This document shows, in pieces, positions 12,328 through 55,174 of a stretch of 64,000 nucleotides of DNA. Where the stretch lies: positions 3,224,001-3,288,000 of the forward strand of contig OZ287749.1 of assembly GCA_965649765.1 (NCBI GenBank), given 5' to 3'. Under the pieces are notes generated by a model that did not search any database, was not told the origin of the DNA, and worked only from the letters and a program-made list of their open reading frames with translations. The position numbers and the translations under genes are program-made. This stretch comes from Bispira polyomma (taxonomy: Eukaryota). Every line of letters starts with the position of its first letter. Within the stretch, counting starts at the first letter, position 1.

Positions 12328-13234
12328 CTGCAATTAGATAGACCAATCTATTTCTAACATTGTGTCTTTTACTTTTACCCATTTGGGATTCGATACCAGT
12401 TCTAGTAACTTGTCATTATTGCTGGCCGTGATCTGCCACCTAGAGAGGAGATCAGCCACTGTATTAAGTCTACCTAAAATGTGAATGGTTTTGAGACTGA
12501 TATCATGGGAGGCTACGGTCATGAAGATGTTTCTGGCAATAGCTGCCAAAGTGAGGTCTTTAGTTTTGCCTGAATTGAGGATAGTGACCACGGCAGCATT
12601 GTCGCAGTGCAATATTAACCTCTTACCTGTCCACGCTGACTTCCATAGCCTAATGGCAACTAAGATGTTTAACACCTCCAGATGAACTATCGTGAAATCT
12701 AGATAACCTAGAGGAATTTGGAATTGGTATACTTCATCATTACAACGGCCTCCCAGACCTTGGAGGCACGCATCCAACTGAATACAATCGGTAGTGGGTT
12801 TGTGTTCAAAGAAGGCTTTTCCATTAAATGTTGGTAAAAATTTTTTAAACCAATTTACATCCTGATGAAACTCAGGTGTAAGTTTTACTTTTTGATCCGG
12901 GCCTACAGATCTTAGGACGTCAAGCATTCGGTTTAAGAAAGCACGTGAAACTCGAACACATTTGGATACATATAACAATTTACCTAGCAGTGACTGCAAC
13001 TCCCTCTTACTGCAGTAGTTTCTTAATTGCCAGTCTTGCACAAGTGTGTTTATTTCTAGTAGCTTTTCATCTGGCAATGAGATTGTCAAGTCATTTGTAT
13101 TAACTAACACCCCCAGACACGTTACTGACGTGCTGGGGTGAACAAGTTTTTTGTGACTAATTGCAAAGCCTAGTTCCTGGAGTAAGTTGAGCAATATATC
13201 AAATGAATGTTTACTTTCTATGACGTCACCATAG

Positions 13235-13628
13235 CCGATTACGTCGTCGATATAGTTGGTGACGTCATGTCCGTGACGTTTCATGATGTACCTGACGGCG
13301 TCACTTAATCGCTGAAAAATTGCGCTCCCGTGCCGAAAACCAAATGGGAGGCAAGAGTCGACGTAGTATTTGTCTAATTTTAAGCCTAATAGATTGTAAT
13401 CAGCTGGATCCATTTTTACGTGACGAAATGCCCGATTACGTCGTCGATATAGTTGGTGACGTCATGTCCGTGACGTTTCATGATGTACCTGACGGCGTCA
13501 CTTAATCGCTGAAAAATTGCGCTCCCGTGCCGAAAACCAAATGGGAGGCAAGAGTCGACGTAGTATTTGTCTAATTTTAAGCCTAATAGATTGTAATCAG
13601 CTGGATCCATTTTTACGTGACGAAATGC
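13235..13628. repeat. 197-bp tandem duplication inside RT
   Basis: 13235-13431 equals 13432-13628 by eye. The ORF track shows the duplicated peptide MDPADYNLL...YIDDVIG. Confidence 0.95.
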
Positions 13629-14965
13629 CCGACTTACGTCAATTTTATATAAGAGCGTTCCACGTCCCATACGACATATTTTGTTTGTGATTGTGTCAAT
13701 TGTAGGAAGGGTTAATGCAAACGCAGTACCGAGATACTTATCCTTGACTACAGCCGAATTCACAGAGTTGCCATGAGGAAAGCTTAAATCTATGATAACG
13801 CACCTGTGTGCGGCACCTGGCTTTTCCCTAGTCATAAAGGGAGAAATATGGAGGTTTTGTATGGGGGCCTTATGGAAAGGGCCCAACATGGCGCCTAACT
13901 CAGTCTCTTCTTTTAAATAAGCATGCACATCATCTGGAAATTGTGTTGCAGATGAATGATTCTGTTCTGTATGAGATAACTTGCTGTCAGGATTAAAATC
14001 GAGGGGAAAGCCATATCTTATCAAAAAGGGGAGTTGTTTATCCCAGTAGTCAGTCAAGTATTTTTCCCATACATCTGGGTTCAACTCAGATTTCAATTGA
14101 ACTTGTGTCCCCATATAATTTGGGTAGTTGTCCTGCTTAATCTGAGTGTGTAACTCTAACAGAGACTTATCCGACTTTACTCGTTTATCCGTTTGGGGAA
14201 CTTGGAGGTCATTTAGCGGAATAAACCCATACTTATCTGTAGTTTGAGTATCCCATTGCTGGAACTGAGGCTGGTTGCAAGCACGTTTTATAAGTTCCCT
14301 GTTTTTCGATTTAGTTTGTAGTTCTAGGTCATATTTGTCTGATTGTATTCCCCCAATACCTCGAGAGAGTATTTTAAGACCTTGACCTTGGTTACAAGTA
14401 TCTGTTAAATGTGTGAAAGAGTTGTCACTAGTGTCCATATAATGGTCATTGTCACTCAAAGGGGAAAACCTATTGTGAGTGGAAATGGGCCATTTGCCCT
14501 GAATGTCTAATTTTGTGATTTCCAGCTTTTGGCCCAATTGATCACCTTTTGTTGGAGGGGGTTTACCCATTTTTGACATTACATTATGCCTCTGTGCACT
14601 TGTAAAAGGGGAAGCACCTTTTGTGAAAGTTTTAACACTCACTCTGTGCCCCAGTTCATGTTTTGTGGACACTTCTGAAATCTGGTTGTTATTTAAACAT
14701 GGTGAACATTTAACATGGTGACTTAGACACCTCTGATTCACATTTGCACTTTGTACAGAAACCTTTATGGCAGCAGACCTGGAGGGAGCCTTTCTTTTAA
14801 CCACATCAGCATAAGATCTATTTACAAATGTGTGTCCAATGTGTACTGCCAGTATTACATTTAAGACTATTATACACAGTTCTAGTGGGAAAACCTTTAG
14901 AATTATTTACAACTTTTTGTGCAAGTTTTTTTCTGACCACCTCTTGTGTGGAAGAAACATAGGCT

Positions 14966-15000
14966 GGCACTGCATTACTGCAGTGCCTTACTCGTTTTTT
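14966..15000 (-). promoter_or_regulatory. Predicted -1 ribosomal frameshift signal (element A gag-pol)
   Basis: TTA AAA AAC GAG TAA followed by GGCACTGCA-GTAA-TGCAGTGCC: X XXY YYZ heptamer in the gag frame, 6-nt spacer, 9-bp stem. Confidence 0.8.
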
Positions 15001-15962
15001 AACGGATATTTTTTACAGTCTTTTGCAGGGTGGGGGTAAGACCTCCCATTTTGAAAGCATTGGTTACACACATGACTATATGACACACCTTTGAATTCGT
15101 GATCCCCTTTTTGGGGGCAAGTACCCTTCTGGAAGTACCTACATGGGATGGACTTCTCATGAATTTTCCTGGTGTTGGTTTGATGATTACTATGTGCAGT
15201 CTGGATGACAACCCTTTGGGCATGAGCCCGTCTAATCCTGTCCAACTTGTGGGCATCTCCCCAGGTTACCTTACCCTCTTCCAATTTATATAGTACAACG
15301 GCATGGCTAGCCTTAGCCGAGGGCCAGGAAAAGTCATGAGCGTCCTCCATGAGGTCAGTGAGATACTCCAACATTTGGTTCTTAACGTCTAAACTACTTT
15401 CATCTCTAGCTATACTGGCAAAACCAGAGACCCACTGGGCCATGGACAACGCGTCATACGTAACTCGTGTTTTGTTTTGTCCCCCTAGTATAACGTTCTG
15501 AGGCCAAGCCACCTTATTCTTCACCCACAGAGTGTCGGGACCCCCTCTTTGAGATTTTGACGTACCTGATTCATTAATGGCCACCAATTCCTTAAGACGT
15601 GAATCCACTGCAGTCTGTAGGGAGTCGGATGAACGTAGTGTCTGTAGCGTCGGGACCAGTAGCTCAGAAGTGGTTTGCTCCGCCTGTCTAGGTTGGGCTG
15701 CACTCCCCGGGCTCGACGCCGGCAAAGCCTGGGCTCCATGTGAACTGCGATAAACTTGCTGCTCAACTTGGGTCATACGCCCACTTAATGCTTTGAGTTC
15801 AGTCAAAATTTGTAGGTTAACGTCGGCAGCAGTTACACCATCGCTAGCCACAGAGTTCTGCTTGGAAGTTCCCACACTGGTATATAATTTACAGTTTTCA
15901 TCAATGGGTTTAATATGACTAGTTTCACACTTGTGACAGTAGTATTGTTTCCTTGGGGCCAT
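14988..15962 (-). CDS. Element A gag-like protein (324 aa)
   Basis: N-terminal CxxC-x3-H-x7-C knuckle, coiled-coil region, KSQRGG..WPQ..YD.L..QWV.GF core, and C-terminal CRYFQKGTC..H..HVCNQC..HPAKDC zinc fingers. Homologous to the gag of D and E. Confidence 0.88.
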   Translation of the reverse strand: MAPRKQYYCHKCETSHIKPIDENCKLYTSVGTSKQNSVASDGVTAADVNLQILTELKALSGRMTQVEQQVYRSSHGAQALPASSPGSAAQPRQAEQTTSELLVPTLQTLRSSDSLQTAVDSRLKELVAINESGTSKSQRGGPDTLWVKNKVAWPQNVILGGQNKTRVTYDALSMAQWVSGFASIARDESSLDVKNQMLEYLTDLMEDAHDFSWPSAKASHAVVLYKLEEGKVTWGDAHKLDRIRRAHAQRVVIQTAHSNHQTNTRKIHEKSIPCRYFQKGTCPQKGDHEFKGVSYSHVCNQCFQNGRSYPHPAKDCKKYPLKNE

Positions 15963-17359
15963 AGCCTCTGAATAATATAAGAATTCGTATCTTTGATACC
16001 TGCAACTATACTAAAGGAACTGTAGCGCGATAATCTGAATTAAATTATATGTAATCAGGCAAATAGCCGTGAATTTGATGCAATATAATTGATTTGACCA
16101 CGTTCCTTTACCACCGCTCAAACGAGCATATAATCGCAAGACTCAAAGTAGAGTAAAACACAGGAATCCAGCAAAAACACTGCAGATCAGTTCCTCCTTA
16201 GTGTGTAGCACAACTTAGTGAATCATTTGTTGCATTTCTTGTTTCCATAACACAAATAGTAAAATCAGTGAAGTAAAAATAAAACACATAAAAATATTAA
16301 AGATGGCGTTGTTGCCTAAATGACTTCAATAGTATAAGTGAGGATTCTAGCTAAAAAGCGGGAAAACAGAGGTTAATTAGTACACAAGTGACCAATAAGG
16401 AAGGGGTTCATAGGGCATGAACCCAGGGTAGAAAATACTAGTAGCACTGAACTTGCTATCCCCTACGGCGCTACCCCGCATAGACATATAGTAATATGTA
16501 AAAGTATAATATCTCAAACATTATTTGGCTGTGTTACACCCTGTGATCTACCTTACTTTACAAAACACATTGACTGTGCACAGCTGGACCTCCACAGGGG
16601 ACTGCTGGATAAGTCCATCAAATTGTTACACCCTCCCTTAATATTTTCGTTTAAACTGTCATATATTCGTCTGTCCATGACATTCATTTTTAATCAGATT
16701 GGCCTGTTCAATCACATGTTCAATCACCTGTTGTTGGTAACCATTCAATTTACTGTTTTCCATGCATCTCAAAACGTGGGTATTTTAAGATATGGTGTAA
16801 ATGTCTGACTAGGGACTTGAGAAGACAGATATATAAAGACGTGAGAGTTTATATTTAGGCTAACTTGAACATGATATTTGGGGAGAGTTGTTACCACTGG
16901 TAGAAGGACAAATACTGCTCTGCATGTTAACAAGCAGCTCGAAGAGTGTCTGTAAATTTGATGTGACAATCAGTTGTACTTACAGGTTACTATTGTCAAT
17001 AAGCAGGGCGTACTTTGCACTCGATAATTGTCCAAATGGATTTATTTTATATTCAATCTTAGTTGTTTTTGCCATTAAAATGCAAACACCAAGTCATGTT
17101 ATTGTACTACACTCACAGTGTGGTAGACTGTGTGTCCTATAGTGTCATAGTTAGACATGTTTGACTGGAGTGTCAGTGGGTTCACAGTGAGATTCATCTG
17201 CATGAACATGGTCAGAAATTGACAAAGAGAGCCTACAGTGTTTCCAATTGGCCTGGTCTATTTAAGATTAATATTTGACCTTTACCCTAATTATTGAGAA
17301 ATCACTGAGCAGAAGAGTGATAACATAATTTTGTGGTGAATTTAGGACAGTGTCTAGAC

Positions 17360-23353: not shown

Positions 23354-23678
23354 AATATGTAACTCAGAAGGAATAGCTTTGGCAAACAAGTATGTCTTTA
23401 ATATGTAACTCAGAAGGAATAGCTTTGGCAAACAAGTATGTCTTTAATATGTAACTCAGAAGGAATAGCTTTGGCAAACAAGTATGTCTTTAATATGTAA
23501 CTCAGAAGGAATAGCTTTGGCAAACAAGTATGTCTTTAATATGTAACTCAGAAGGAATAGCTTTGGCAAACAAGTTTGTCTTTAATATGTAACTCAGAAG
23601 GAATAGCTTTGGTAAACAAGTATGTCTTTAATATGTAACTCAGAAGGAATAGCTTTGGCAAACAAGTATGTCTTTAAT
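23354..23678. repeat. 46-bp minisatellite x7 derived from an L2 ORF2 C-terminus
   Basis: Unit aatatgtaactcagaaggaatagctttggcaaacaagtatgtcttt, nearly identical copies. The minus strand plus flank reads APTLSSLRSKLKTYLFAKAIP. Confidence 0.92.
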
Positions 23679-26699: not shown

Positions 26700-29600
26700 T
26701 GTAGACTACACCATGTTACATGTCACAACAATAAAATAGAAATATAGTAATATAGAGAGGTTCTTCACACTGCTTATTACAGTCCAAGTTCTAAGATGTG
26801 AGGCTAATAAGTTAAGATAGTTTCCAAAGTAGTTTGTTGGAGATGGATAAATTTGTAAATCAGTAAAACTCTATTTGAGGATTTTATTTTTTACAGGTTA
26901 GTATATATGTACATGTACAGATAAGATGTAAAGTAATAAAAATTTTAAAATTATTTGAAATTTTTGAAATTTTTGACACCCAAGCCCAACTAAGAGGGAA
27001 GAGGAATGGTGGAAGCGAAAGTAAGGGGGACAACAGAAGCTGCTTCTGATGTCTGTTGCAAGTAGGTCCACACAGCTGAAGATCTCCATAAGCCATGTGA
27101 CATTATATTCTGAAATGAAACGTCATTGTTAAATGCATATGTGGCACCTGATCTTCTAAAAGTGTGAAAACCGTGGGTGTTGTATTCGATGCCAATGTGT
27201 TCTAAAATTTTTTGAAGGGCTGCCCTCACATGAGAATCCACCACAGGATAGAAAGGTAGAGTAGCTAATGCAAATAAGGGTGCTTTGTGTGAAAGATTCC
27301 CGGGAGCAAGCAATTTCCTTAAAGCTAGTACAGGGCAGGGTGTGCTATTGTGGAGTTCAGGAATCTGTATTGTGTGTATCAGATTTGTTCTGTAATTGTT
27401 TTGCCCACTTAAGTGTTATGTGTGCCCCAGGTGGTCTAAATGATAGGTCTTGCCTAAGAAAATGTCTGGTAGGATCAAATGCAGATTTTGAGTGTGCTGC
27501 TATATTGGAAAGTCTCAAAAATGTAAAAAATGCCATGAGAAATATGGCCCTAAACAATAATGGACCTTCCAGGATATTGCAAGCTTTGGAAATGTTAGCC
27601 ATTTGTTGTATGTCGAAGATGCCTTTATGTTTTGGCTTGAAAGCTGAATTATGTGTCAAGCTTCTCAAGAATAATTGAATGTATTTGTGTAATAACGAAA
27701 TGGGGTCTGTTTGATATTTTTGTATCATGTACTTGATAGCAGCTACATAGTTATTTATAGCCCTAGGTGATAGCCCCGCTTGAACCAGGCATTCTAGAAA
27801 TACCAGTACTGAATGTATTGTTACTTGGTAAATGCCAACAAAATGATTACATGCCAAAACAGTACAAAATTGTGATTTATAAGCACTAGCTGTCTTTGGT
27901 CTGATGGCAGTGTCAATTCTGTTCCAGGCTGAGGCTACAAACTGACTGCTGAGGTTGGTGGAGCCTGTAATTACACAGATAAATTAAGGTTAAAGTGTTC
28001 CAATGGAACTTGTTTACACTGAAATTTATTGTTTAATGTATCTAACATTTCCACACAAGGTGGGTGAGCTGAATATATAGATAAAGCGTCTGCTATGATA
28101 TTTGGTTTTCAAGGAATATGTTCCATGGTGAGTGTTATATCAAATGATGCTGCTATCAGCCACAAGTTCCTTAAGCAAAGTGCTAAAAAGTCGTCTTTAG
28201 TCTTTTGGGATCTGACAACCAATACTACAGCCATATTATCACAAAGAATGTTTAATTTTCTGTGGGCCCAGTCATTTGCCCAAATTCTAATAGCTATTAT
28301 AATATTTAACATCTCGAGATGTGCAATATTTAAGTCCCGATTATAAACGTTATGTATTGGGGTTGCGTATATCTGGTCGCCCCAGACGCCTCCAAAGGCT
28401 GTGAGGCAAGCGTCCAAGTGTAGTTCGTTGGCGTGCAAAATTATAGGAAGGAAGAAATTTTAGAAACCATTGCAAATCACTTTTCATGTCCCCATCGACC
28501 TTAATGCGCTTCTCAGTACTGCCTCTAAAGGCCATTAGAAGTCTGCATATGAATGTGCGTGCTGGTTTTACACACTTGTGAATGTACAGCAGACTACCTA
28601 ATAGGGATTGATTTTTGTTTTTAGAAATAAATTTTTTATTATAAATTTCCGAACAAAGATTCCAAATTTGGGTAATTTTTTCCTTAGTAATAGAAATTGT
28701 GCCCTTCTGAAAATCAATATCTATACCAAAACATGTCATGCTCTGTGTGGGTGAAGTGAGTTTCTCGTTGTTCATGGGGAGACCTAATTTTTTTAATAAT
28801 TCTGTCAAAATTTGAAAACTTTTTTGAGCCTTATGTTTAGGTGTGATACATATGTAGTCATCGATGTAGCAAAGTAAATTGAAACCTGGAGAACAGTGTA
28901 ATTGTGTGGAATTAATGGCTTTGACTGGGCCCAACATAGCTCCATTTTCTTTCTCTTTGTCTAGATATTGACCCACTGCATTAGTGTATTGTAAAGCAGA
29001 GAAGTGATTTTTTGTTTTAACATTGTTTAACTAATCAGGATTAGTAAGACTCAAAGGAAAACCAAATTGCACACACTGGATTACCAGCTGGTGAGGATAA
29101 TCAGAAAAAATGTTTTCCCAAGCACTTGGGTTCGAACCTGAAATGATTGGATACCTGGCTTTTCTGTAGTTAGGAAGTTCAGTGTCACTAACCAGCTTGC
29201 CAATTTCAATCATTTTTTCTACTGAATCAATGTTAACAGGTTTCCTGTCCGGACCCTTAAATTTAAATTTTGTAGAAGAAAGTGCAATGAAACCTATGGT
29301 TTTGTTTGGATCATTAATGTCAGTGTTACCAGAACTGGTATGTTCCTGTCTTCCTGGATATTTGTGCTATGACAGTTTTTGAAGAAGACAGACAGATGCG
29401 TATGTGATTGTGGTAAGTCACCCCTACTCACCTTTTCCTGCTTGCTTTTATTATCAATCATTTTATTTCCATTTTTACTATTTTTAACAGACCAGATGTC
29501 TGCTGCCTGTGACTGCTTAATTAAGACATCAATAACATTTTCCATGTAGAAAGTATAATTACAATTATATTGGACAGAGGACTGCAGATCCCTTTTATAG

Positions 29601-31900
29601 TAATAATGACAATTTTTAGATTGTTTTCTGGTGTCATAAGAATAATTGGCAACACTCGGTTGAATTTTTTTCACCATACTATCACCCAGCCAAATTTGAG
29701 CTTTGTATCTATCTATGATCTGCGGTTCACCTGTTGAAGTAATAACTGTTGGAGAATATACCATACAATTATATGTAGCACAATGGCAGAGGCAGTAAAA
29801 GCCCTTGCTACATTTTGTATTTTCACTACAAATGTAAGCCACTGGGGCCATAACTCCTCCATAATTAGACATTTCAGATAAATTTGTAACAGATATCTGC
29901 ACTTGAAAAGTTTTGCCAGTAATACAACCAGTATCTTTTCCACCCGAATTGACTAAAAATCTAGGGTTAATATCTCCTAGATTTCCCTGTAAGCAAATTT
30001 CTGTTTCAACATCTATTACATTTTTACTACTTGTTTTAACATTATGAGTATCATAATGACCCCTTGGTATGTTCCCAACTACCTGCATGTAGACATTATT
30101 GGCAATGTTGAAATTAGTCTTGGCTTTATAATTATCATTATTTATTTTACTAGTAATAGCTTTTCTTTTCTTACTATTCACACAAATTATGTTACTTCTC
30201 TGTTTAATTCTATACACTTCCTATTCGCTGATTGGATGACGGTATTGTCCCTAACAATTACTTGACTGTTTTGGATTTTTGTTCAAATTAGCCTGAAATT
30301 TAAAGCACTTGAATTCGGGATGCACTGCATCCTTGCCAAGTGTTTTGAACAGTGCCAACAAATATGCCTGTAAATAGCATGGTCGGTTTTGTGGGAACAT
30401 TTCCCATTATTGTACAACTTACAGATCGTCTTAAATTCATTTTGTTTCCCCTTACTCAGATCATTGCTACCATTATTAGCAGTATTGCTTACAAGTGCCA
30501 TTTGAGATGCACTTAATCTATTTAAAACCCACTGCGTTTGGTTGTCCCATGTAAGTCGCCCTTCCTCTATCTCCTGCATACTGTGGCCCCAGGCCGTGCG
30601 CACGACTGGCCAGGGGAGAGCTACCGCATCCCTGAGTGTGTGAACTACCTGCTGGATCATGCCTTTCATCAAGGCAGGGTCTGCTACTAGAAGGGCGTTG
30701 TTGAGCTGATTAGCCGCCCATTGCGCCATAGACAAGCTTTCCGTTTCGCATTTGCGCCTACCCACCCCTCATTCGGCCATCAAAATTTGGGGTCTGCTAT
30801 GGAAATGTCAGAACTGTTATAACGCCCAGATTGTTGTTTTACTGGAGCCTTACCTTGGAGATTGTCTCTCTGGATATTGGTCTCATACCCCACTAATTGC
30901 TTGGCTATGGCAGCCTGTATGGCTGGTATCGCCCGAAGAGTGTCCAGTTGTGGAACCACGCCGTCCTTGGCAAAGTCCTGGTGAACCGGGGGTTTTGTGG
31001 TTGGACCTGGATTCATCGCCCGCGTAGGACCTAACGGAGTTGGAGCTATCGAAGCTGGAGCTGCCGATGTGGAGTGGTGCGGTCCCGTGGTGTCTGCTGC
31101 CAGCCTAGTAAATAGCGCTTGTTGAGTCTGAGTCGTTTCAACCTTACTGATTCGCTGACTGAGTTCTGCGTTCGAGGTTTCCAGTCATCTATAGTATAGC
31201 CAGCATCTCTGAAGAGCTGTCTGTGCTAGCAGTAACGCTTGACATAGACTGTTGACTCGCCATGAGTGGTTGAATGGCAGTCGCCCCCCGACATGCCTGC
31301 AATCGTGAGGATATAACCCCAGCATAAGCAAGGTCTCTATCTGCAGTTGGATAGCCCAGAGCATGTGGAAGTAGAGACTCGGTGGTAATATTACTAGGTG
31401 CACGTGGAGGTGTGAGTTGGTAGTGGTTGTGGACAAGAATTCTGGAGATGGTTCGAGAGGTCTAGATGCTAGAGCAGTGAACTGTGCTTGAACCTCGGAA
31501 ACTATAAAGTCTGATACCTGCTGACCTTCCTTACTGAGGTCTGTTGGAATTATCGTGCTTTTCTTTGTCCTCACCTTGGTCGACCTTGTAACTGGTGTTT
31601 TTCTAGTTGTTTTGCCCATTTTCCTCTTATGGACCACACTATACATTAATGGTAACTGGATGTATAAAATTAAAAACAAACTAAAATAAAACAAATAAAA
31701 ACACTATATACATTCCAGTTTTTCAAAATCAAATCTCGAGTTAATAATGCTAACAAGATGGAGGGGACCGGTCATGGGTGACTAAACCTCAATTTGATTG
31801 GAGGTTGTCAAATAAACAGGAAAATAAAGGTTAGTTATAACCTAAGATTTTTAAGGTTAAATAAATCTTATGTTGGACCGAACTAACAGACCCCTAGAGT
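26700..31900 (-). mobile_element. Element B: degraded DIRS/Ngaro-like YR retrotransposon (separate family)
   Basis: gag ~31619-30250 (AQWAANQL, WPVVR, CKLYNNGKC..HICWHC); pol ~30217-27971 with central RT motifs deleted (LHCSP joined to FNLLCYIDD) and RNase H LDAC/HLE/CDN; YR 27964-26990 (FLRLSN, HTFRRSGAT, HGLWRSSAVWTY). Several frameshifts. Confidence 0.92.
27965..30853 (-). other. Predicted phase-1 gag-to-YR intron (element B)
   Basis: Donor CAAG|GTAAGG; acceptor TAATTACAG|GC directly after the pol stop. The spliced frame gives ...DNLQ-G-STNLSSQFVASAWNRIDTAIRPKTASAY. Confidence 0.72.
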
Positions 31901-33158: not shown

Positions 33159-36100
33159 TACAGTTTCCCCAGGCAGTCCAGTTTATGATGAAGATGATTC
33201 AGTTTTGAGTTACTAAGTTTCAGGTACAACACTACAGCCTACAATAATGTCACCTTAACATGTGGTAAGTTATTGTTCGACATTCATTTAAGGTGACCTT
33301 ATATTCTACATTAGGATTACCTTAACTAAAGTTGAGGTTACCATTGTTAGTTTGAGGTTACCTTAACCTTAAGGGTTACCTATTACTTTGTTATTTGCTA
33401 TACTATTTTAACCTTGGTATTTACTTTATTGTTGTATATATGTATCTATGTATATAGTTAAATAACTAATTACTGACTATTATGTAAAATTGTAAAGATA
33501 AAAGACTAAAATACACTAAAATTGTTACTTGTAGTTATTAGCGAAGGAAATTGCATAAAAGAGCAGCCTTACAAAGACTGAGCCTTGATAAAGGCTGGAG
33601 CTCAAGTGAGCAAGCCTCGTAAAGGCTATTTACATCGCACACCTATTAATGCTGCCCCAGTAACGTGGAATGCGAGGAGTTGGGGCCCCGGACCTGGGGC
33701 ACTAAGTCGCCTAGCAGCAGGGAGTTCAGCCGCCCAGAGCTTTTATTCTACCAGCTAAGGGGAAAGATGGGCGACTGGACCCGCCACCAAACGGTCCGAG
33801 ACCCAAACATCACATCATGCATTCAATGAAACTGGTACAGAAACTACCTACTGACAAAATATACAATTTAAAACCACTGCCCTTTAAATTTGTTTCTTGG
33901 AAGTGGGTGGGTGGGTATTTTTCCTTGTTGTCTCCACAACATCTACTTTAAGAATGATATTTATTAAACATTCCCCAATTGGTGAACAATTTTGGGCGGG
34001 AAATTTGCCGCCCTGTGTAGGCTTAATGAGTGCTTTTACTTTAAGACCTGCCAGGGGAAACTGACACCTGACGCTGGCTGACACGTGCTCAACTTACAGT
34101 TTCCCCAAGCAGTCCAGTTTATGATGAAGATGATTCAGTTTTGAGTTACTAAGTTTCAGGTACAACACATAGTAAAAACGAATTTGTAAAATCATTGGGC
34201 TTTATTAAATACATACATATATACATTGTTAAAACTAAACTACTGCCTACAATAAGGTCACCTTAACATGTGGTAAGTTATTGTTCGACATTCATTTAAG
34301 GTGACCTTATATTCTACATTAGGATTACCTTAACTAAAGTTGAGGTTACCATTGTTAGTTTGAGGTTACCTTAACCTTGCTATACTACTTTAACCTTGCT
34401 ATTTACATTATTGTTGTATATATGTATCTATGTATATAGTTAAATGACCAAACCCAATTTGTAGGTGTAATTTAAAGGTTGTGGCAAACCTGCCCGCTGC
34501 AGCAGGGGTCTTGATGAGGGAAGATGGCGTCCGACCTCCAGCCACCATGCACCTTTATGTGGTCCAAATTGACATTGTGGTCGAAGGCCCATGAGGCCCC
34601 GGAACGACGTAGAGTGTGGAAGCCATACTCTGCTGTGGGAAGTTTGATCTTCTTAACTAGGTTGGCCAGGACCTTTCGTACCTGGTGAGATGTGATAGTA
34701 ACTGTGGTGTGGTTATGTGTGTACATAAATAATGGTTTTTTCTTAGATCGATTGGCTGGGACCAGCTTCTGTAAGGCCCTAACTGAGCAAAGGGAAGAAC
34801 CAGGGAGTACAGGTATTTGAACAACTTGTACTTGGCCAGAGGTTTGCATATTTTTAGCGCACTTTGTTATGATGTGTGCCCCAGGACTACCCAAAATGAT
34901 GTCATTCTCAGTTGGGAACCTGGATGGCTGAAACTGAGCTACTGTATCTGGGACGAGGGTTGCTAATCTGTAAATGCCGAAAAACCTAACAAAATTATGT
35001 CCTTGAACTCCCTAGCCACGAGAAAGCCGGTAGCACCCGCAATCAATTGCTGTAACTTATTTGGAGAGAAGACCCCTTTTATTCTGTACTACAAGGGTGC
35101 ATTGTGTGCAACAGATTTAATCATAAGGGTTACTTTTTTGTGATGCAACACGCTTAAGGGAAAATTGTACATATGAAAGAAATGTTTCATAACTGTTGTG
35201 TAACCTGTAAGGGTAGTAGCTCTGAGCCCCTGTTGGGCCAAAAGAACTCAAGAAATAATAAAACAGAATTAAGGTCACAGGGGAAGTCAATTTGTAGGTA
35301 CACTAGCAGTGCTAAGTATAGCCTAAATTTTGCTTTGTAGGCTGTTGAAGTGCGGTGCCTGGAACCCGTAGTCACCTGGGCATTGGCATCTTGAAGTAAT
35401 CCTTTCACCAGGGGGTGACCTACAATGATTAAATGTTATAGTTAGGAACTAACCATTCTTGTTTTACTTCATGCCAAGTACACGTATGCAAGAATTTGAC
35501 TTCAGCCTTATTGGTTGTGTTAAAGTGATTCCAACGAGATAATAAGTCAGCATAAGTATTGTTGATACCCCTAACGTGCTGGACAGAAATTTCTATATTG
35601 TGTGTGGCTAGTATCAACCATAAGGTGCGCGCGCAGGCATTGAGGAAAACATCCCTACATTTAAATTTATTAAGGATATGTACAACAGCTAAATTGTCAC
35701 AATGGAAACATATTTTCTGGTTGACCCAACTGGACCCCCATAATTGGAAGGCCACTATGACGTTGACCATTTCGAAGTGTACTATACTAAGGGCATCCTT
35801 ATAATGTTCAGGGATTTGTACTGAATAGAATTGATTGTCCCAAAAGGCCCCCAGCCCACTCAAGGACACATCGACATATAATTGATATATTGGGCTATTG
35901 TTTTGGTGTATTTCTGTTACCCCGTTAGAAGGCCCCAGGAATCGACAGAACCAATTAATATCCCGGTGAAAGCCGTCAATTAGCTCAATTGATACATTAG
36001 GGGGAGCCCCCAGCAGCACCCCCAATATTCTATTAACAAACAGGCAGGTGGGCTTCACACACCGGTGAACGTAGAGTAATTTTCCTATTAACTTCTGCAA

Positions 36101-41023: not shown

Positions 41024-41146
41024 TTAACTGGTCATCACAGTATATAATATGTGATGATTGCCCCTAACATTTAACTGGTCATCACAGTATATAATATATA
41101 ATGATTGCTCCCAGCATTTAACTGGTCATCACAGTATATAATATGT
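41024..41146. repeat. 47-bp tandem repeat, ~2.6 copies
   Basis: ttaactggtcatcacagtatataatat starts at 41024, 41071 and 41118. Confidence 0.9.
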
Positions 41147-42390: not shown

Positions 42391-42631
42391 CTAGAAGATG
42401 AAACATAAAAAATAAAGTTTTTTTTAAAGCAGATGTAATGACACTTACATAATTACACAGTTATAAAGGTATATCAATTAATTGTAAAAGTCTGGTTAAA
42501 CAACAAATTCAAGGCAAATGATACTTCATCCACCAAGACAACAAAAATATAATAACTAGTAGATCTGAAGAATTAATGATTAGGCAACACAACCAAGAAA
42601 TAACCAAGACAAGCCACAGAGTTTACCTCAC

Positions 42632-44489: not shown

Positions 44490-47400
44490 AATAGTAGGCA
44501 GCGCCCAGGCGCGGGTATTTTCAGTTCACAGGGTACCTTGTTGTGGCTTACTATAAAAGACGGAACATTTTAAATTCTCCCGCCTTTCTTATTTTCATGT
44601 ACTAGGAACAACTTCGAAACAATAGGCTTGGTGGTTGGCAGTTTGAATTTGTTGTTGGTGCACTTGGATATTTTAGTCATTTTAGTGTTTTAAATTTAAA
44701 ATTGTAATTATATGTTCACAATGCCAAGTATTAAAGACGTTAGTGTGGTGGAAAACATGAAATGGCAGTCGGTAGAAAATGTGTTTATTTTGTGGCACCT
44801 GAGGAATTCGTGGCTGTCGCCGGCTCCAGTGATGCTTCTACCTCCTCTCCAGCTCAGGGCGATCTTATTTCTGGACAAATTTTGACACAATTGCAATCCA
44901 TAGCTGAAATGATGGAGAGGATGGACCAACAAGTACAGCTCACGGAGGCGGCGATAGCGGGAGACCTCACCAAAAATCAGGCGGGTAGTAGCTCTTTTTC
45001 TGTCAATTCTGTAGTCGAACCGAGTATAGAAGCTAGTTCCAGTGATAGTGTTATTCCTACTGTTGAATTTCTAAAGAAAAACTCGGCCATTCAGACACAA
45101 GTAGAACAGAGATTAGTTGAATTAAAAGCTTTGAACGAGAATCTGACCCAAACTAAGCTTAAATCCCAACGAGGGGGGGGGGGGGTACTGATGTTCTGGT
45201 TAAAAAATTAGTCGAATGGTCACAAAACTATGTACTTTCTGGGAGTCTGAAAACTCGTCCAAGTTATGACAACTTAACTCTTAATCAGTGGGTCTGTGGA
45301 TTCACTAGGATAATTCAAGATGAGAAATCCCCGGAAGTTTGCGAAATAATGTTGGAATATATGGCTAATTTGATGGAAAACTCCCAGGATTTTTCCTGGG
45401 AGTCGGCCAGGCGTGCCATGCTGTCATTCTCTCCACGATGAAGATGGACAAATTAAAGTGGACAGAGGTCGACAAGATAGATCGTCTGAGAAGGGCTCAT
45501 GCCCAAAGGCATATTTCTAGTAGTAGCAGTCAGGGAAATAGCAAAACTGGTACCAAGACAACTATCAGTGGTAAGCAAAATTTGATGAATTGTAAATTCT
45601 TTCAAGAAGGTACATGTAAACATCAAAATAAACTCGGCCTGTCATAAGAAGGGTTAAAAAAACTAAGGGGCCACTGCAGCAATGCAGTGGGCGAAAAAGG
45701 TATAAAGCGAATTCTTAGTCGTACTGTATATAGTAAGGATTTTCAATCATTTTACTTGTTTGACAAGTCGATGAGTAAAAAGATGTGTACATATAACAGA
45801 GGTATAACAAGTCAGTGTAGTTACAACGAAGTCGTGGTTAAACCGCGTAGTAGCAGTAAATATGTGGAAAATAATGTATTACAAAGTGTACATAAAAATA
45901 CCAGTACTAATCCTAACCTTTAAAAACAAAGCTTGGGGGGCAAAGTGCTCTCAAGACATGTGAACAAAGCAACAATAGGGGCGACCAGAGCTAGGCAAAC
46001 ACACAAGGTGAGAGTTAAAAAACCACAACCTATTGTCAAAACTCGGGTTCCTCTCTTTGTGAACAAATGTAAGAGTGTAATTGATTCTAACAAACAAAAC
46101 AACCAGTGGCAGGCTGACACGGCTTATAGATTTAGTATGCTTGGCCAGGTTGACACTTCCATTGTTGAGGGCCACAGGGACAACAATGAAAGTGAGTGTT
46201 TGCCAGGGCCTATCGTTAGCAACACACTGGCCAGTGGGGGAAAGGCTAGTACCAAGAATAGGTGCAGTATTTCTTGCAAGGGTAATTCCCCTCCACAGGT
46301 CAGTATAAAGGAACAAAAGAAAAGGTATTCTACCAAGAAAGGTCTTATTAGTGACAAGTGTGTATTTGATTTAAAACAAAAGCAGAACAAGCACGAATTG
46401 TTGAAAAAGGCAAAATTAAATGAAACCCACATCAAATGGCGTGAACAAAACAAGGTCCACTATGGTTTTATCCCTTTGTCTACATTGTTTACAAAAATAT
46501 GGGACAATATTTCAGAAAATTTGGGTATTTATATTCTAGAAATGCATAATTTGTTGTGACAAGATGGTAGACAAAATTTCAAAGGTCTTCAATTACCAGT
46601 AAATTCCCAGCTTAATCCTGCGAGGTGGAAGCAATATTTGGGCGAATATTAGGATTGGCAGTTACCTCTTCTCATTAAATGTGGGTTCCCCCTTGACGTG
46701 TGTTGGGATAATATTAGTCAATCAGCGTGGCCCAATCGCAAATCTTGTTTGGAATTTCCTGAACATGTTGAGATTCTGTTTGATGGAAGAATGTGACTAT
46801 GGTGCAATGCTCGGGACATTTATGGACCCTCCAATCAAAAATTTGCATTTCTCACCAATAATGACACGCACAGAAACAACCTCGAGTAATAGGCCGGTCA
46901 TCGTTGATCTGAGCTGGCCGAGGGCCAATCAGTTAACGCTGTTGCTTCAGCCACCACATACTTGGGTACAGATTTTATATTGTCTGATCCTTTTATCGAC
47001 CCTTTAACAAATAAGGTACTAAAACTGGGGAGAGGTTGTAAAATATTCAAAATTGACATTAGTAGGGCATTTCGACAAGTGCCCATTGATCCTGGGGACT
47101 GATTTGTTAGGCCTGAAGCGGGGGTCTTATTTTATAGATAAGTCCCTCCTGTTCGGTTATCAGAACGGGAGTACTATCTTATAGAGAATTTCAGATGCAG
47201 TCAGATACATAATGCACTCTGAGGGTCATAATGTCAACAATGATTTTTTATGCATCTCGCTCCCGAATCAAATCGACAAACTTTACTAATGCTTGCAGGT
47301 ACTGCTTTCTGAATTAGGACTTATAGTCAGCAAGAAAAAATTAGTGCCTTCTAATACTGTGGTTATATTGTCTGGGTATTAGTATTGATACTGTAAAATT

Positions 47401-49745
47401 TATTACTTCTATTCCCATTGAAAAATTGCAGGAAATTAAAAATTTTTGTGTCAGATGGAGAAGCAAAAAATCTTGTACCAAGAAAGAACTTCAGTCTTTG
47501 CTAGGGTCTCTATTATATGTGGCACAATGTATTAGGTATGCTAGATTATATCTGAATCGAATGTTGGCCTTGTTGAGAGATAACCACAGCAATAATAGAT
47601 TTCCTCTTACTGAAGAGTTTACTAGGACCCAAAGGTGGTTTATTACGTTTATAAATCAGTTTAATGGAGTCTCTTTCTTCAATCACAAGCCCGTCAATGC
47701 AAAAATTGAGTTATATGCTTGCTTGACAGGCATGGGAGGCATATATAAAAATCAAGTATATAAATTGTCAGTCCCTACTAATATGTCTCATCATAATATT
47801 GCGGCACTGGAGATGATAAATATAATGGTAGCCTTAAAATTGTGGGCTGAGGCCTGGCGTGGGTTCCGAGTATTATTCAAGTGCGACAACCAAGCTGTGG
47901 TCAGTGCTCTGAAAACGGGGCAAACAAAAGATCCAATATTGGCTACTTATACTTGCAATATATACATGTGGGCCAGTCATTTCGATATTGACATTAAAGT
48001 TGTACATATACTAGGCATTGATAACAATATAGCCGATTTATTGTCTAGGTGGGACAAAACCAAGAATAATGAACAAACTTTAGCTACTTTAGCAGGTCCT
48101 GTAGTTTGGTTAGATACTGACCACACTTTATTACAGGTGGATAATAATGTATAGCATAAATACCTCTACTTGTATGTATTTCAGCAACAAATCCAATGGA
48201 TAGGATGCTCACAAAGATCGCATGCCAGAGATTGCATTCAGCTTTGCTGCTTCGACAGCTAAAGCCTATGACAGCATGTATAGACTTTTTCTGGCTTTTG
48301 GGGCCTTCATGAATTGGATCCCCACCCAGGTGAACGTTTTCAACCTTCGTGCATATTTAGAATTTTTAAATTTTAATGCTGTATCACCCTCTCAGATTGC
48401 AAATCACTTGTCAGCCATCAAAGCTAAGTGCATCCTGTTGCATTTAAATGTTGATGTTTTTTCTGATCCACGAATTTCATATTTTACTAGAGCCTTGTTA
48501 GTTAATAGACCTTTGCAATTAAAATTAAAATGTATTTTTGACATACCCCTGCTTAGTGCTGTAATACAAAAGTGTAATTATATGTATATGGGTCAAGTAT
48601 TCAAGGCTGTTTACCTTAGTAGTTTCTTCAGTTTTCTGCGACTCTGAAATCTATGTACTCATTCAGTAAAGGATTTTTCACCTCTCAAGCATCTCGCCAG
48701 GGGCGATATCATGTTCAAGCCTGGTTACGTAGTCCTATTGGTAAAATGGTCAAAAACAATGCAAACTAATGATGCTGTGCGACTCCTCACATTACCAGCT
48801 CTGTCAAATTCTATTTTATGTCCAGTCACAGCCTTGAAAAACTTGTTGGTCATTACTCCTGCTGGTACAAATCTTCCTTTGTTTCAGTTTAAGCTTTCGG
48901 CTTCCTGGGTCCCTCTTACTGACACCCGGGTTAGGCTCCATCTCAAAAGTGTGTTACAAATGCTGGGATTACAAAATTCAAATCTCTCCTTCCATGCTTT
49001 TCGACGTTCAGGTCCCACCTTTGCTTTTAATAATAATGTCCGAATCCAAGATATTCAGAGGCATGGCACATGGACGTCGGATTGTGTGTGGAGATACGTC
49101 ACAGACTCAGCCAATGCTGGTACCCAGGTACCCAACGCTTTCTCTGCAGCCCTGCATACTTCTTTGTGATCTGGGTTTGGTGGTCTGCCACATTTTATGT
49201 GACAGTACATGTTTATATTAATGTTTATGTATATAAATATAAACTTAAAGTAACCATATTACTGTACTGGGCATAAGGTCACATTACATAACACAGTACA
49301 TAATGTACTCTTTTATCTCAAATTTGATTCAATCTCAAACTTAACTTACATTTAAGTCTACCTTACTAGTTAACATGAGGTTGACTTACTGCAACCTTAA
49401 ACTCAACATGTCTCTTCTTTGGCTTAACCTGACCTTAAATTCCAGTTAAGTCACTGGTAGACTTAACTTAAGCTTGACACGAAATTTCAAATCACCCACA
49501 CTTAACTCAATTACAGATTTAAAAGTATATTTATGGTCGCCTTATTCTCAATTTAAGGCTACCTTAGTAATTTCAAAATACTTGTAGTTAAGGTGACCTT
49601 ATGCCCTAACTTGATAACTGTGTATATATGCTAAGTAGTAGCCTAACATATTAGTGCCTAATAAAATCTTAAACCACAATCTTTTACTTGGTTATGCAAG
49701 CTTACATATTATTAAATAAGACGGCTACACAGGGGAACTGACACA
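44490..49745 (+). mobile_element. Element D: degraded DIRS/Ngaro-like YR retrotransposon
   Basis: gag ~44721-45666 (KSQRGG, KIDRLRRAHAQR, CKFFQEGTC); pol ~45660-48154 (HFSPIMTR, IVDLSWP, KIDISRAFR, LLGSLLY, CDN, ADLLSR); YR 48185-49169 (FLRL, KWSKT, HAFRRSG, HGTWTSDCVWRY); GGTNACC-rich 3' UTR and AATAAA at ~49660. Confidence 0.93.
45657..45690 (+). promoter_or_regulatory. Predicted -1 frameshift signal (element D)
   Basis: A AAA AAC TAA GGGG CCACTGCA-GCAA-TGCAGTGG. The -1 frame reads KKLRGHCSNAVGEKG into the tracked ORF at 45687. Confidence 0.75.
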
Positions 49746-52061
49746 TATTTAGTACAATGTTAAAATTCTATCCAAGCCACCTTGTATTATACACAGTAGT
49801 TTGTTTTCAGTGTTCCACCAACTATACATTATTTTTTTAATAATACACTGGTCGCCCAGTATTTTCTAATAAAAACATTTGTGAAAAAAGGAGATAAATT
49901 TCTAATAAAATGATTTTTCATTGTTATTTTTTTTTTCAATTGTGAAATCTCGAAAAAAGTTTTTCATGTGACATTGCAGGTTTTATTAGTTAAATTTTCA
50001 AGCAGCACATGTTACCAGTTTTATATCAGACATTGATTAATAGACCATCCAAAATGGATTCTAAGACATCTGTGAAAGTGTTATATTAAAAATCTATTAA
50101 TAGATAATCCAAAATGGATTCCAAATGCAAATACATATTTTTTATCAATACTATCATTACTTAACAACTTCTCATTCCCCAAATTCCTTTTATCTACCTC
50201 TTCATTCCATAGGTTCCCACTTATTTGCATTCCCCCACTTTATGTAAATCTTTTTTACCAAAGTTTTTTTAACTTAAAATCCCTGTTGCTTAGTTTCGAG
50301 CCATTGGGTGATCTATTGTGGTGAGCAAAAGACCAGTGTGACCTTCAAATTAATCCACTTAGATTTATTTAATAAACAAGTAGTCAGTGTACTTTACCTG
50401 AAACTGGATGTTCACAGGAAAGTTGGAAATTCATTTCCCCGGTAACAGGCTAATGATACGAGGTCAGGAAGACAAGGTAAGTAGACACAGAATGTGGTTA
50501 AATTTATTTATTAGACTAAATGTTAGCAGCTACTATGTACATGGTGAGTGAAAGTCACCTTAAAATTTACTTAACAATGAAGGCAACTTAGGGTCACCTT
50601 ACATGCAAAATGAAATTTAGGAAAATAAATAAATTTATGTAAGGTCACCTTATCTTATAATTTCTATGTTCATATTTGCTAGCTCAGAACGAATTGTTCC
50701 GGAGTAAGGTGACCTTAATTCCAAAGTAGAGTTTAGAGAGAAATAATTACAAGTTAAGATTACTTAAAAGAATCAGCTAATGTACTGTAGCATAACTTGA
50801 GAATTAAGTATTAGAATTGATTACAACTGATATGAGTTGGCATTACTTCAACCACAGGCTACTGTACTGTAGCGCTGAAATGCGTGACAGGCATTAGTTA
50901 CAGTCTAAAGTTACACCCTGTGAGACATGCAATTACATAGTACGTTTCCCATTAACTGAAGAACTTATGAAGTTACTATGACTAGTGTAATTACATAATA
51001 CTGTTCAGGTTAAAAGAGCAACTTAACTGCAATAGCAGTGGCAGTATATGCCAGGGAGAAGCAATGTTAAACTATAACCAGCCAAACCCCAATGGTAGAA
51101 ATTAGGAAGTAAGTGATAAGGATAGGTGTTGCCTAAAGGAATCAGCAACCTGTTGGCCCTTATCAACAGTATCGGTGACATACCTCCAGACGCAGTCCGA
51201 CGTCCAGGTGCCATGGTATTGTATATTTTGAATGCTTACATTATGATTAAAAGCAAAGGTGGCACCTGAACATTGGAAGGCGTGAAAGGTAAGTCCAGCA
51301 TCTTGCAAGTGGAGTCTAGACAAAATATCACTCAAATGACGACGCACTCGAGTGTCAGTAAGTGGTTGCCAGTGATTATTACTTTTGAACTGAAATAGAG
51401 GTGAATTTAGCTCAGAAGGGGTAATTTTCATAATGTCCTCCAGTGCCCTAACTAGGCATAACATTGAGCCCGAAATTCGAGGAAGGGAAATTAATTTAAT
51501 TTGGTTATTGGTCTGCATAGTTTTGGACCATTTAACGAGGATAACAGCTTTCTCTGGTTGGAAAAATACGTCAGAACTGGATAAATGGAGAAAAGTGAGA
51601 AGCTGCATGGGGAACAAGATTGGACAAATGAAGAAATGAAGAGAAGCTAGTTAAGTACAGAGCTTTAAACACGAGTCCCATGTTTGTAGAATGACACATG
51701 GAAACAATGTTTTTGAGAGTGCCAATGTCAAAAACCTTCTTGAGTTTTACATTGAGGGGTGCAGACAATTTAACAGCCCTTTGGTAGTAAGCTATACAAG
51801 GGTCACTGAAGGCATTTACATCAATGTCATGTATTATGGACTGAGCCCTGATTGCAGACAAATAATTTGCCATATGAGCAGGTTTGACTGAATTAAAATG
51901 TAACGTTTCCAAGAAACATAATAAATGGAGCGCAGTCACCTGATGTGCAGGCCAATCCATGAATACTGTAAAATTAAAGGACCTGGCAGTAGATCTACAG
52001 AAGGCCAAGTGAAGTTTATTGGTGGCATTACGACACAGTTGCTTTTGTAAGGGAGTCTTTT

Positions 52062-55000
52062 CTGAAATACAGGAAAATGACAGGAAGACTGATGCAAACA
52101 CATTTATACAGAATTATTTAGTATTAGATGTTCATGAGAAACTGGACACCACTGAGCTGCACCTACAAATTTTTGCAATTGAACATAGTCCTGGGGCAAA
52201 CCCTTCCACCTGGAGAGCAAATCAGCAGTTGTGTTGTGTTCTCCCAAGATGTGTATAACCTGTAATTCGACATCATACTGACTAGCTAACATAAATATGT
52301 TTCTTGAATACAAAGCCAAAATACTGTCTCTGGTTCTACCATGTGAAGCACACTCACCACAGCTTGGTTGTCACATCTGATAAGAACCTTCTGACCATGC
52401 CACAAGGGTCCCCACAATTTTAAGGCGACAAATATGTTGAGCATTTCTAATGAAGCAATATTCAAAGTTTGTAGTTCAACAGGAGTGTCTAGTGTATATA
52501 TTTTTTGGCCAAAAACCCCCCCATGCCTGTGAGGCACGCATCTAGCTCAACTGTTGCAGTTACGGGGTTATGGTGGAAAAAGGAGACACCCTTAAATTTG
52601 TTGAGAAAGGTACGGAACCAGTTTAAGTCTCTCAGAAATTCTGTGCTTACTTTAAAGGTTTTGGCTTTGTAATTGCTCCTAAGCAAATGCAACATACGAT
52701 TCAAAAAAAATCTTGAGTACTTGACACATTTTGAAACGTATAGAAGGGAGCCCAGTAGACACTGGAGTTCCCTTCTAGTACAGTATCTTTTACCTGACCA
52801 CTTATCACACATGTTCTGAATACTAGACAATTTGTCCTCTGGAATAGAGGTGGTAAAATCGACCGTATTTATAACAATACCCAGATATGTAACTTTAGTG
52901 TTAGGAGAGACTAGCTTCTTGTCACTGAGGGTCAAACCCAGCTTGGCCAATAAGTCTATGAGTCGTTGGTAAGTGCTATAGATTTTGGAGGGTATCGAGC
53001 AACAAAGGAGATCGTCGATATAGTTGACGATATGGTGACCTTCACCTTTCATTATATATCTGATCCCATCTGAAATTCTCTGAAATATGGCCGAGCCGTG
53101 CTTGTAGCCAAAAGGCAAAGAACCGTCCACGTAGTATGCCTCCCAGTACAGGCCTAATAAGTTTAGTTCTCTCGGGTCTATAGGCACGTGTCTAAAGGCA
53201 CGGCTGATGTCTGCTTTAAAGATTAAAGAGCCTCTACCCATAGCAAGTACCTGAGAAGTTATCGTGTCAATGGAAGGGTAAGTTAACATGAACTGTCTGC
53301 CCAAGTATGACTCAGGACACACGGCAGTATTTACTGAGTGACCTTCAGGCCAACTCAAGTCGATTATGACACGACGGTTGGTAGAACTCGATTTGTCGCG
53401 TGTCATGAACGGTGAAGTGTGTAATTGAGGAATTGGTGGCACATCAAAGGGACCATACATAGCCCCAAAGTCACATTCCTCTTTTAAATAATGTTCGACG
53501 TGTTCCGGGTACTAATCAGCGGAAGCATGATTTTTGAGTTCAGACTTAAACTCATGTTGGTCCACACAATCGAGGGGAAAACTAAACTTAATAAGCAACG
53601 GGAGTTCCCAATCCCAGTAGCCTCTCAAGTAGCTAGACCAAACTGTGGCATTCAGCTGAGAAGCAACTGGGATCTGTAGACCCTTATAGTTTGGACGCCT
53701 GTCCCGCTTAATACATTGGTGGAGCTTTAACCCATACACAGGACGCTGATTTTTAGAATTGTCAGATATTTTATGACCCCCAAGATGAAAGGGGAATGAA
53801 GCCAAACTTGCCACCACTTTGGACATCCCATAATTTAAAGGTGTCACAATGTTTTGCATCATTTAATTTTTTCCTTTTATCAGTAGCCCGGCACATGTCT
53901 AAAGCATACTTGTCATCGGACAAGATAGTTTTGGCATCAACCTTTTCATCAGTCAACGAGGACACCACGTCATTGTTTTTGTTCACAGGCAACTTGGTCA
54001 CACAAAGGGGGGGGGCTCAACACAATCACCCAATTTGGCATTTTCTTCCAGACAATGGGTGTCAAGCACCCCAAACCTATGAGAAAGTGTTATGCAAAAT
54101 TCATTGTTGGCACCCCCCATGTCACCCTCCTTTCTTTTGGACAATGTCCTTTTCTTTTTCAAGTCTTTTGTAGGGTAATTAAGCCCCTTGGACACTGTTA
54201 GTGAATTACTTTTGACACCCCTTTTGTCTTGAGGCTTTACAACAAAGCAATGGCCCTCTGGCCACCTGGCTCAATTTGTTTCACACACAGTCTTATGCAC
54301 ACTTTTATTTACATGCTTTCCCAGCACTTCACCCATTTTGTTTACATTATCGACTATATTTTCCACAAAATCTTTCTGAGGGACACCTCTCCCAATTTCG
54401 CCCACAACAGAAACTCCCCTTGGGTGTTTAATATTCGTGTGTCCCCTTACAAGTGCATCTTTGTAAGACTTACACGCATTTGTTTTGGAACAAGAATAGT
54501 TTATTAAAAACCTGTCTGACAACAATCCAAAATCCTTAAACTTTGAATGATACACAACTCGGCTAAATACTGGTTTCCCCACTGCATTTCTACAGTGGAC
54601 CCTTAGTTTTTTTACTTTTTTGGACACAATTTTGTTTGATGGCTGCCATCACAAGTTTCACAACAATGTTTGAAGAGTTGACCCGAGGTTCTATGAGTAG
54701 CATTGAACTTACAGGACCCCTCCTGGAAAAATCTACATATCACGCCCTGACTCTTGCTTGGCAACTTTGTTTTACTACCAATGGATTTGGTACCCGTACC
54801 ACTACTGGAACTGCCCGATATGTGACGTTGGGCATGTGCCCGACGGATTCAATCGACCTTGTCCACATCGGTCTACTTAAGGCGGTCCAATTCCATGTTG
54901 GTTAAAAGGATGGCATGGAAAGCTTTAGCAGCTTCCCACGAAAAGTCGTGTGCGTCATCCATACGATTGGCAAAATACTCCAACATTGCTTCTTTAATTT

Positions 55001-55174
55001 CCGGGGATTTTGGTTCTTGCACACACCTTATGAATCCTGAAGTAAACTGAACCAAGGTTAAGTCGTCGTAGGTGGGTCTAACCTTCTTAGCCCCCAAGAG
55101 CATGAAATTTTGAGGCCAATCGACTGCCTTCTTGATAGGCGCATCCGTACCCCCACGTTGGGACTTAAGTTTAC
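52062..55174 (-). other. Predicted phase-1 gag-to-YR intron (element E)
   Basis: Donor GCAG|GTAAAC; acceptor with long pyrimidine tract TCTTCCTGTCATTTTCCTGTATTTCAG|AA. The spliced frame gives ...QLTGA-E-KTPLQKQLCRNAT. Confidence 0.75.
54579..54612 (-). promoter_or_regulatory. Predicted -1 frameshift signal (element E)
   Basis: A AAA AAC TAA GGGT CCACTGTA-GAAA-TGCAGTGG (one G-U pair). The -1 frame reads KKLRVHCRNAVGKP. Confidence 0.75.

Follow-up and report, generated by a model that had tools for sequence, protein, structure and literature searches.

How a tyrosine recombinase (YR) is translated when its open reading frame (ORF) has no conserved start codon is the question raised by a 64,000-nucleotide (nt) stretch of the Bispira polyomma genome (assembly GCA_965649765.1, contig OZ287749.1, positions 3,224,001 to 3,288,000), hereafter called the window. 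The source assembly is eukaryotic and comprises 1.04 Gb in 75 contigs. The window holds five decayed YR retrotransposons, A, B, C, and E on the minus strand and D on the plus strand, built on a set of gag, reverse transcriptase (RT)/RNase H (pol), and YR genes. A first, sequence-only reading of this DNA had proposed that a phase-1 intron fuses the N-terminus of Gag to the recombinase. The splice signals analyzed here indicate that host splicing very probably yields such a Gag(N)-YR fusion, and that the unspliced RNA would yield Gag and, through recoding, Gag-Pol.

All five copies in the window are broken somewhere, so the splice model was tested on relatives. Searches of the genome used the A, B, C, and E YRs as queries, and 80 copies were taken, 20 per group, which were picked by a long open YR frame and a spread of identity, blind to splice sites. 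Identity between the four clades is 18-41% for Gag and 22-53% for YR. The 80 copies form 32 clusters at 80% YR identity. An intact gag, defined as a frame of at least 300 amino acids (aa), is present in 39 of the 80 copies and in 23 clusters.

Splice signals at the YR start and in gag

The conservation of the YR protein begins abruptly at one alignment column, and the acceptor lies at the same column. Among the 78 alignable copies (2 of the 80 fetched could not be placed), a phase-1 acceptor was located in 76, at that column in 57 and one codon later in 19, all of the C group; in the remaining 2 of 78 the AG is shifted by one base. All 76 located acceptors read TTNYAG, a motif with a background of about 0.003 per position in the window (about 0.001 for AGGTA), and in each clade the acceptor is the most T-rich conserved YAG of the whole intron. 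The YAG acceptors described earlier at 6-42 nt past the pol stop were recovered in all five window elements, at 6 (A), 6 (B), 9 (C), 30 (D), and 42 nt (E). In the relatives this distance is 6, 7, 8, 9, 10, 14, 31-46, or 79-81 nt, with all three frames represented. The acceptor is kept even where it lies 31-81 nt into non-coding DNA past pol, and hundreds of nt in foreign elements. No YR start codon is conserved, as had been claimed; the first Met past the acceptor occurs anywhere from codon 9 to codon 191.

On the donor side, a phase-1 G/GTA (the slash marks the junction) is found at one gag glycine column in 39/39 intact gags, with A at position -2 in 38/39. The residues flanking it vary, with six different amino acids before and four after. 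When 343 gag columns were compared in three phases, the donor column was the most donor-like at 1.00, the next reaching 0.49. Its glycine is also the sole invariant third base among 46 conserved fourfold-degenerate columns of gag, pol, and YR, the next being 0.86, and other conserved glycine columns of gag are degenerate in codon. Among the other 41 copies, whose gag is not intact, the anchor could be placed in 25; of these, 21 keep AG/GTA, 3 have lost it, and 1 is a false anchor; 16 were unlocated. In the window, the donors of A, B, and E all follow base 1 of GGT in the gag frame at the homologous glycine codon, as first read, and the reported absence of gag from C holds. The donor of D is indeed degenerate, and 14 of its 15 close relatives retain G/GTAAG, as the splice model implied.

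The predicted intron is 2.9-3.6 kb long. In all 33 copies with a located gag start, the frame read across the predicted junction is open and 462-656 aa long. The fusion of about 460 aa with a zinc knuckle and a coiled coil that had been envisaged stands for the A and E clades (about 460-480 aa). It does not stand for the B and C clades, where the predicted product has 511-656 aa and where the N-terminal zinc knuckle is absent from 7/7 B-like gags, or for window copy A, in which a premature YR stop leaves 426 aa. Outside the B group the knuckle would be retained in the fusion.

Elements of other organisms were sampled by a scan of metagenome contigs, which returned 31 related loci at 25-42% identity; 27 of them, from 12 assemblies to judge by contig name, cover the YR start. 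A phase-1 YAG lies within five codons of the YR start in 27/27 loci, compared with 4/27 in each other phase. For the most part, the DNA 5' of these YRs is rich in AT and has in-frame stops, and the distance between pol and YR reaches about 780 nt. The gag site was found in seven loci, and a GT in the glycine codon is present in five (CAG/GTAA in two, ATG/GTA in three); one of the two others has another GTAAGT nearby. Homologues among public proteins show the same break in conservation at the YR start, and 112 of the 178 that have that end begin at or within the YR domain. No relative was detected among the viral contigs searched. In three of the foreign contigs (L118, L128, and L146) gag lies downstream of YR, which could mean that the assembly collapsed through the A repeat or that the elements exist in tandem or circular form.

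We also modeled the Gag protein with AlphaFold2 (mean predicted local distance difference test [pLDDT] 71.5, predicted template modeling score [pTM] 0.43). The model contains a long helix (residues 45-75), a disordered linker, helices at 106-132, a helical domain predicted with confidence (165-259), and a region of zinc fingers. Residue 133, the donor position, falls at the end of a predicted helix (113-132), before the separately folded domain. In this model the fusion would retain the putative coiled coil and the pre-donor helix and drop the helical domain and the C-terminal zinc fingers. Structure searches with the model gave no Foldseek match at E<=0.001, a best Z of 5.4, and only unnamed clusters in the ESM Atlas. 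A loose count of a coiled-coil motif associated with trimers (34/39) was set aside, as it pooled two distinct sites.

Proposed routes to pol and to the recombinase

The ends of gag differ among the clades. In A-like and E-like copies, pol is in the -1 frame, and the end of gag carries the heptamer A_AAA_AAY, followed after a short spacer by a 9-10-bp hairpin; slippery site and hairpin together occur in 13/20 A-like and 7/20 E-like copies, and the hairpin pairs are swapped between the groups. B-like gags end in TAG-G in the pol frame (14 of 17 located copies), a candidate for read-through, and C-like gags end in GTT-stop with pol in the +1 frame (16/20 copies). Sister clades thus appear to use three different gag-to-pol recoding signals: a -1 shift, UAG read-through, and a +1 shift. 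The third resembles the GUU_stop_C motif for +1 frameshifting in closteroviruses (available text of PMC3542737) in that gag of the C clade ends in GTT plus a stop with pol at +1, but the stop is followed mostly by T, where the closterovirus motif has C, the context is a retrotransposon, and the motif is only a candidate here.

Taken together, one gag start codon would be common to all three ORFs. The unspliced RNA would serve as genome and as Gag mRNA, and some ribosomes would pass into pol through recoding at the end of gag, by a -1 shift in the A, D, and E clades, by UAG-G read-through in B, and by a GUU-stop +1 shift in C. In part of the RNA, the host spliceosome would join the phase-1 donor in mid-gag to the phase-1 acceptor after the pol stop, with about 2.9-3.6 kb cut out. 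The spliced RNA would encode a Gag(N)-YR protein of 460-660 aa with 130-330 Gag residues. Speculatively, and with roughly even chances, the Gag portion kept in the fusion assembles together with Gag and so brings the recombinase along with the particle or the complementary DNA (cDNA).

The splice model predicts a constraint on nucleotides that protein constraint does not, and finding that constraint in the relatives supports the model. The probability that the motifs arise from protein constraint, codon bias, or chance is close to negligible. GGT is the commonest glycine codon of gag (277/786) and the copies are related, but this would not account for the codon degeneracy of the other conserved glycine columns, for donor bases that are fixed while the neighboring amino acids vary, for acceptors of the E clade and of foreign elements that lie in non-coding DNA, or for the low counts in the phase controls. 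Synthesis of YR from pol without splicing, by read-through, frameshift, or termination-reinitiation, is hardly credible. Pol-YR distances span all frames, which disfavors read-through of pol into YR. The large foreign gaps and the in-frame stops directly before YR likewise argue against it, and it would leave the invariant gag donor unexplained. These points stand against a pol stop exactly 6 nt from the YR start in 26/71 measured copies, the recoding apparently already used between gag and pol, and an in-frame but unconserved ATG 5' of the acceptor in 17/76 copies, including the A family.

It is very improbable, too, that both splice sites are real and have separate partners. In that case the acceptor would pair with a 5'-leader donor, translation of YR would begin at an internal AUG, and the gag donor would be spliced to some other acceptor. 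That the two sites share phase 1 would be a coincidence, and no other universal acceptor lies inside the intron. Leader splicing is hinted at by an AG that lies only a few bases 5' of the gag ATG in A-like copies, and a Met stands at codon 32 past the acceptor in 34/76 copies; however, the position of the first Met varies widely, and the residues before codon 32 are conserved and lie within the SAM-like domain. Splicing from the gag donor could also reach pol in place of recoding, which would add to the Gag-YR splice without replacing it and which we regard as unlikely. In the A and E clades, the 3' side of the hairpin holds a conserved CAG whose phase-1 register is compatible with the pol frame, but this AG is base-paired and has no T-rich tract (0.35-0.37 vs 0.59-0.64). 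Moreover, pol contains no acceptor that is universal (maximum 0.62), the AGs at the gag ends of B and C seem to be in the wrong phase, and a -1 frameshift agrees with the combination of slippery heptamer, spacer, and hairpin.

Several points weigh against a spliced Gag(N)-YR fusion. Its basis is sequence signals; no junction read, cDNA, or fusion protein has been observed, with no RNA run among those listed. The copies are related by descent, and their counts are therefore non-independent trials. The branch-point motif YTRAY is inconsistent, occurring in 37/76 copies (B 17/20, C 17/19, A 3/19, E 0/18) against 2-31/76 for controls, and the pyrimidine tract of A, B, and C is short, since its zone includes the pol stop. 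Foreign donors are weaker or absent, 3/7 being ATG/GTA and 2/7 lacking the glycine donor. No intact spliced retrocopy was found among the best 150 gag-N matches (longest open frame 444 aa), and no junction-probe search of the genome was made. No Gag-YR fusion is present among 269 public proteins, which resemble ORF calls on unspliced sequence, and no Gag extension was found in the best 150 representatives and 120 homologues. A search with the gag-N region and an alignment of gag-N to proteins of 453-2000 aa also gave no fused protein.

Six long-frame candidates for spliced retrocopies proved to be ordinary or internally deleted copies, and a 601-aa frame was gag continuing into pol. Three sequencing runs of unknown kind covered element A evenly, as DNA would; the gag-YR junction was not among the 15 of 83 joints listed, which carries no weight either way.

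The elements and other contents of the window

The gag, RT/RNase H, and YR ORFs all have the same orientation. Split direct repeats in the order A1...B1 A2 B2 are carried by full-length copies from each of the four clades (L034, L059, L089, and L102), with the internal ones 3' of YR and a repeat identity of 95-100%. Pol has no methyltransferase: it ends about 40 aa past the start of the RNase H AD.LS motif, and in three intact pols the Pfam matches were confined to RT and RNase H-like families. The elements showed no SGNH hydrolase ORF. YR matches PF00589 and a SAM-like domain, mostly under the curated cut-off, with conserved R, K, HxxR, W, and Y columns. Ngaro elements are defined by the order gag, RT/RNase H, YR, by the arrangement A1-[ORFs]-B1A2B2, and by the lack of a methyltransferase (available text of PMC4157794, PMC8547959, and PMC13465315). 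The elements of the window have this structure and are Ngaro-like. The earlier label of DIRS-like is right as to the order DIRS but not in the sense of DIRS1, which needs inverted termini, an internal complementary region, and a methyltransferase, where the termini here are direct split repeats and the methyltransferase is missing. A PAT-like identity agrees with the repeats, but there is neither a methyltransferase match nor room for one.

The coordinates of the features are collected in Table 1.

Table 1. Features of elements A to E, with positions counted from the first letter of the window; a slash in a motif marks the predicted junction.
Element	Feature	Position	Strand	Remarks
A	5' repeat A1	16291..16483	-	Matches A1 as well as A2 of the full-length copy L034
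A	gag ORF, 324 aa	14988..15962	-	Zn knuckle, coiled coil, linker, helix, then post-donor helical domain and Zn fingers
A	Predicted phase-1 donor CAG/GTACGT	15560..15568	-	Exon end 15566; coding exon 1 = 397 nt
A	Candidate -1 frameshift signal	14966..15000	-	A_AAA_AAC 15000-14994 and 9-bp hairpin 14987-14966; inferred
A	pol	12334..15000	-	Long unconserved N-terminus, RT, RNase H, no methyltransferase
A	Predicted acceptor TTGCAG/	12328..12333	-	6 nt past pol stop
A	YR exon	11342..12327	-	Premature stop 11446-11444 removes C-terminal tyrosine region
A	Repeat B1	10778..11335	-	Copy end; without A2-spacer-B2
B	Predicted phase-1 donor AAG/GTAAGG	30848..30856	-	gag broken
B	gag TAG then G	30251..30253	-	Stop in pol frame in relatives; candidate read-through
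B	Predicted acceptor TTACAG/ (27965) and YR exon	26990..27970	-	YR frameshifted
C	Predicted acceptor TTGTAG/ (35420) and YR exon	34472..35425	-	YR frameshifted; gag absent; pol 37090-35429
D	Decayed gag donor site	45147..45157	+	
D	Candidate -1 frameshift signal	45657..45691	+	A-run slippery site and hairpin
D	Predicted acceptor TTTCAG/ (48184) and YR exon	48179..49169	+	30 nt past pol stop; YR frameshifted
E	Predicted phase-1 donor CAG/GTAAAC	55169..55177	-	gag broken (ATG about 55611)
E	Predicted acceptor TTTCAG/ (52062) and YR exon	51102..52067	-	After pyrimidine-rich 42-nt non-coding spacer; YR frameshifted
	Recoding-signal sites	15000-14966 (-), 45657-45691 (+), about 54612-54575 (-), 30253-30251 (-)		Also copies L091-L110

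The pol frame of element A is disrupted by a perfect 197-bp tandem duplication (13235-13628), which is not found in the other listed copies of the family. Around position 10900-11200, repeat B1 contains short imperfect direct and inverted repeats that differ among copies, possibly a structured end signal. A sixth YR remnant, fragmentary and with a short pol fragment, adjoins the end of element A (9868-10755, plus strand). In most A-like copies, a T-rich AG lies a few bases 5' of the gag ATG (about 15975-15963 on the minus strand in the window), and a second AG lies about 40 nt farther upstream; a leader intron is possible there and is not evident in the other clades. Full-length copies have a spacer of 270-1100 nt without a long ORF between A2 and B2 (L034:6748-7650; L061:7378-7644; L041, oriented, 6731-7660). 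A-type YRs give 13,128 first-look candidates genome-wide, a very large expansion, and more than 30 A-type copies at 96-99% identity point to at least one young family.

Elsewhere in the window, an RT ORF remnant matching PF00078 (18762-20559, plus strand) is presumably LINE-like, and an ORF at the window edge (1-808, minus strand) we take to be an endonuclease-like mobile remnant. A DDE_Tnp_4 fragment (PF13359) lies at 58142-58549 on the minus strand, and a possible gag-like remnant without a Pfam match at 61406-62072 on the plus strand. Tandem arrays occupy 23305-23734, 40998-41153, and 62166-62376; their repeat units measure 46, 47, and about 70 nt. Hydrophobic ORF fragments at 42046-43066 (minus strand) may be exons of a host membrane protein; the one tested had no Pfam match.

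Comparison with known systems

The sequence-only reading knew of no such splicing in the order DIRS, and the literature searched contains no report of it; the founding papers of Goodwin, Poulter, and Butler, the kangaroo paper, Repbase, and supplements were outside the coverage. Natural splicing of a YR retrotransposon is not described in the available text of PMC7192593, PMC9341512, PMC4495291, PMC3266345, PMC6681497, PMC9210276, PMC2632668, PMC12477816, PMC3783388, or PMC5633606. On balance, Gag(N)-YR splicing was probably undescribed before, though we hold this with some reserve. The elements themselves belong to a known kind, and what appears to be unreported is the way in which they express the recombinase. 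A broader reading would be that a wide Ngaro-like branch follows a retrovirus-like plan undescribed for the order DIRS, in which one gag start leads to three proteins, three interchangeable recoding devices give access to pol, an older splice junction makes an obligate Gag(N)-YR, and the coiled coil builds YR into the particle; we give it somewhat less than an even chance.

The literature, in the text available, gives the YR of such elements as a third ORF, without a mode of translation. If the splice model is true, the real recombinase would be a Gag fusion, which matters for the biochemistry of integration in the order DIRS, and a route would be suggested by which an integrating enzyme outside Pol gets to the cDNA. 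Present annotations would then have the wrong YR N-terminus, as in the many public homologues that start at or within the domain. A splice junction that outlasted three gag-pol recoding mechanisms would be a natural experiment in retroelement gene expression. The model also gives a precise and cheap test, one junction per family in RNA sequencing.

Ngaro YR is described solely as a third ORF, in frame or frameshifted relative to pol, without splicing, in the available text of PMC3783388. The elements studied here are like Ngaro in the order and orientation of their ORFs, their split direct repeats, and the lack of a methyltransferase, and they are placed there by structure. Unlike the published B1A2B2, which in the available text is given without mention of a spacer, they have the A2-B2 spacer noted above.

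Foamy-virus pol and retroviral env are expressed from spliced sub-genomic mRNAs, with the unspliced RNA serving as genome and Gag mRNA, and retroviral env normally begins at its own AUG. The analogy to env drawn at first holds in that splicing is balanced and a spliced RNA would serve for a downstream product. It fails in that those proteins normally have their own start or a short leader, whereas here gag would supply the start and 130-330 residues, fused to an integrating enzyme that stands outside Pol. In Copia, the spliced RNA encodes Gag and omits Pol; here, the spliced RNA would make a Gag(N)-recombinase fusion, and Gag would come from the unspliced RNA. The spliced sub-genomic RNAs of Ty1 and Copia (available text of PMC5580714 and PMC3735527) are nevertheless alike in that the host spliceosome sets the protein ratio of a retrotransposon. 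Cryptons are YR DNA transposons with introns (available text of PMC13465315) and share the expression of a YR gene via spliceosomal introns, but they have no gag or RT, their intron positions are variable, and their recombinase is not fused to Gag.

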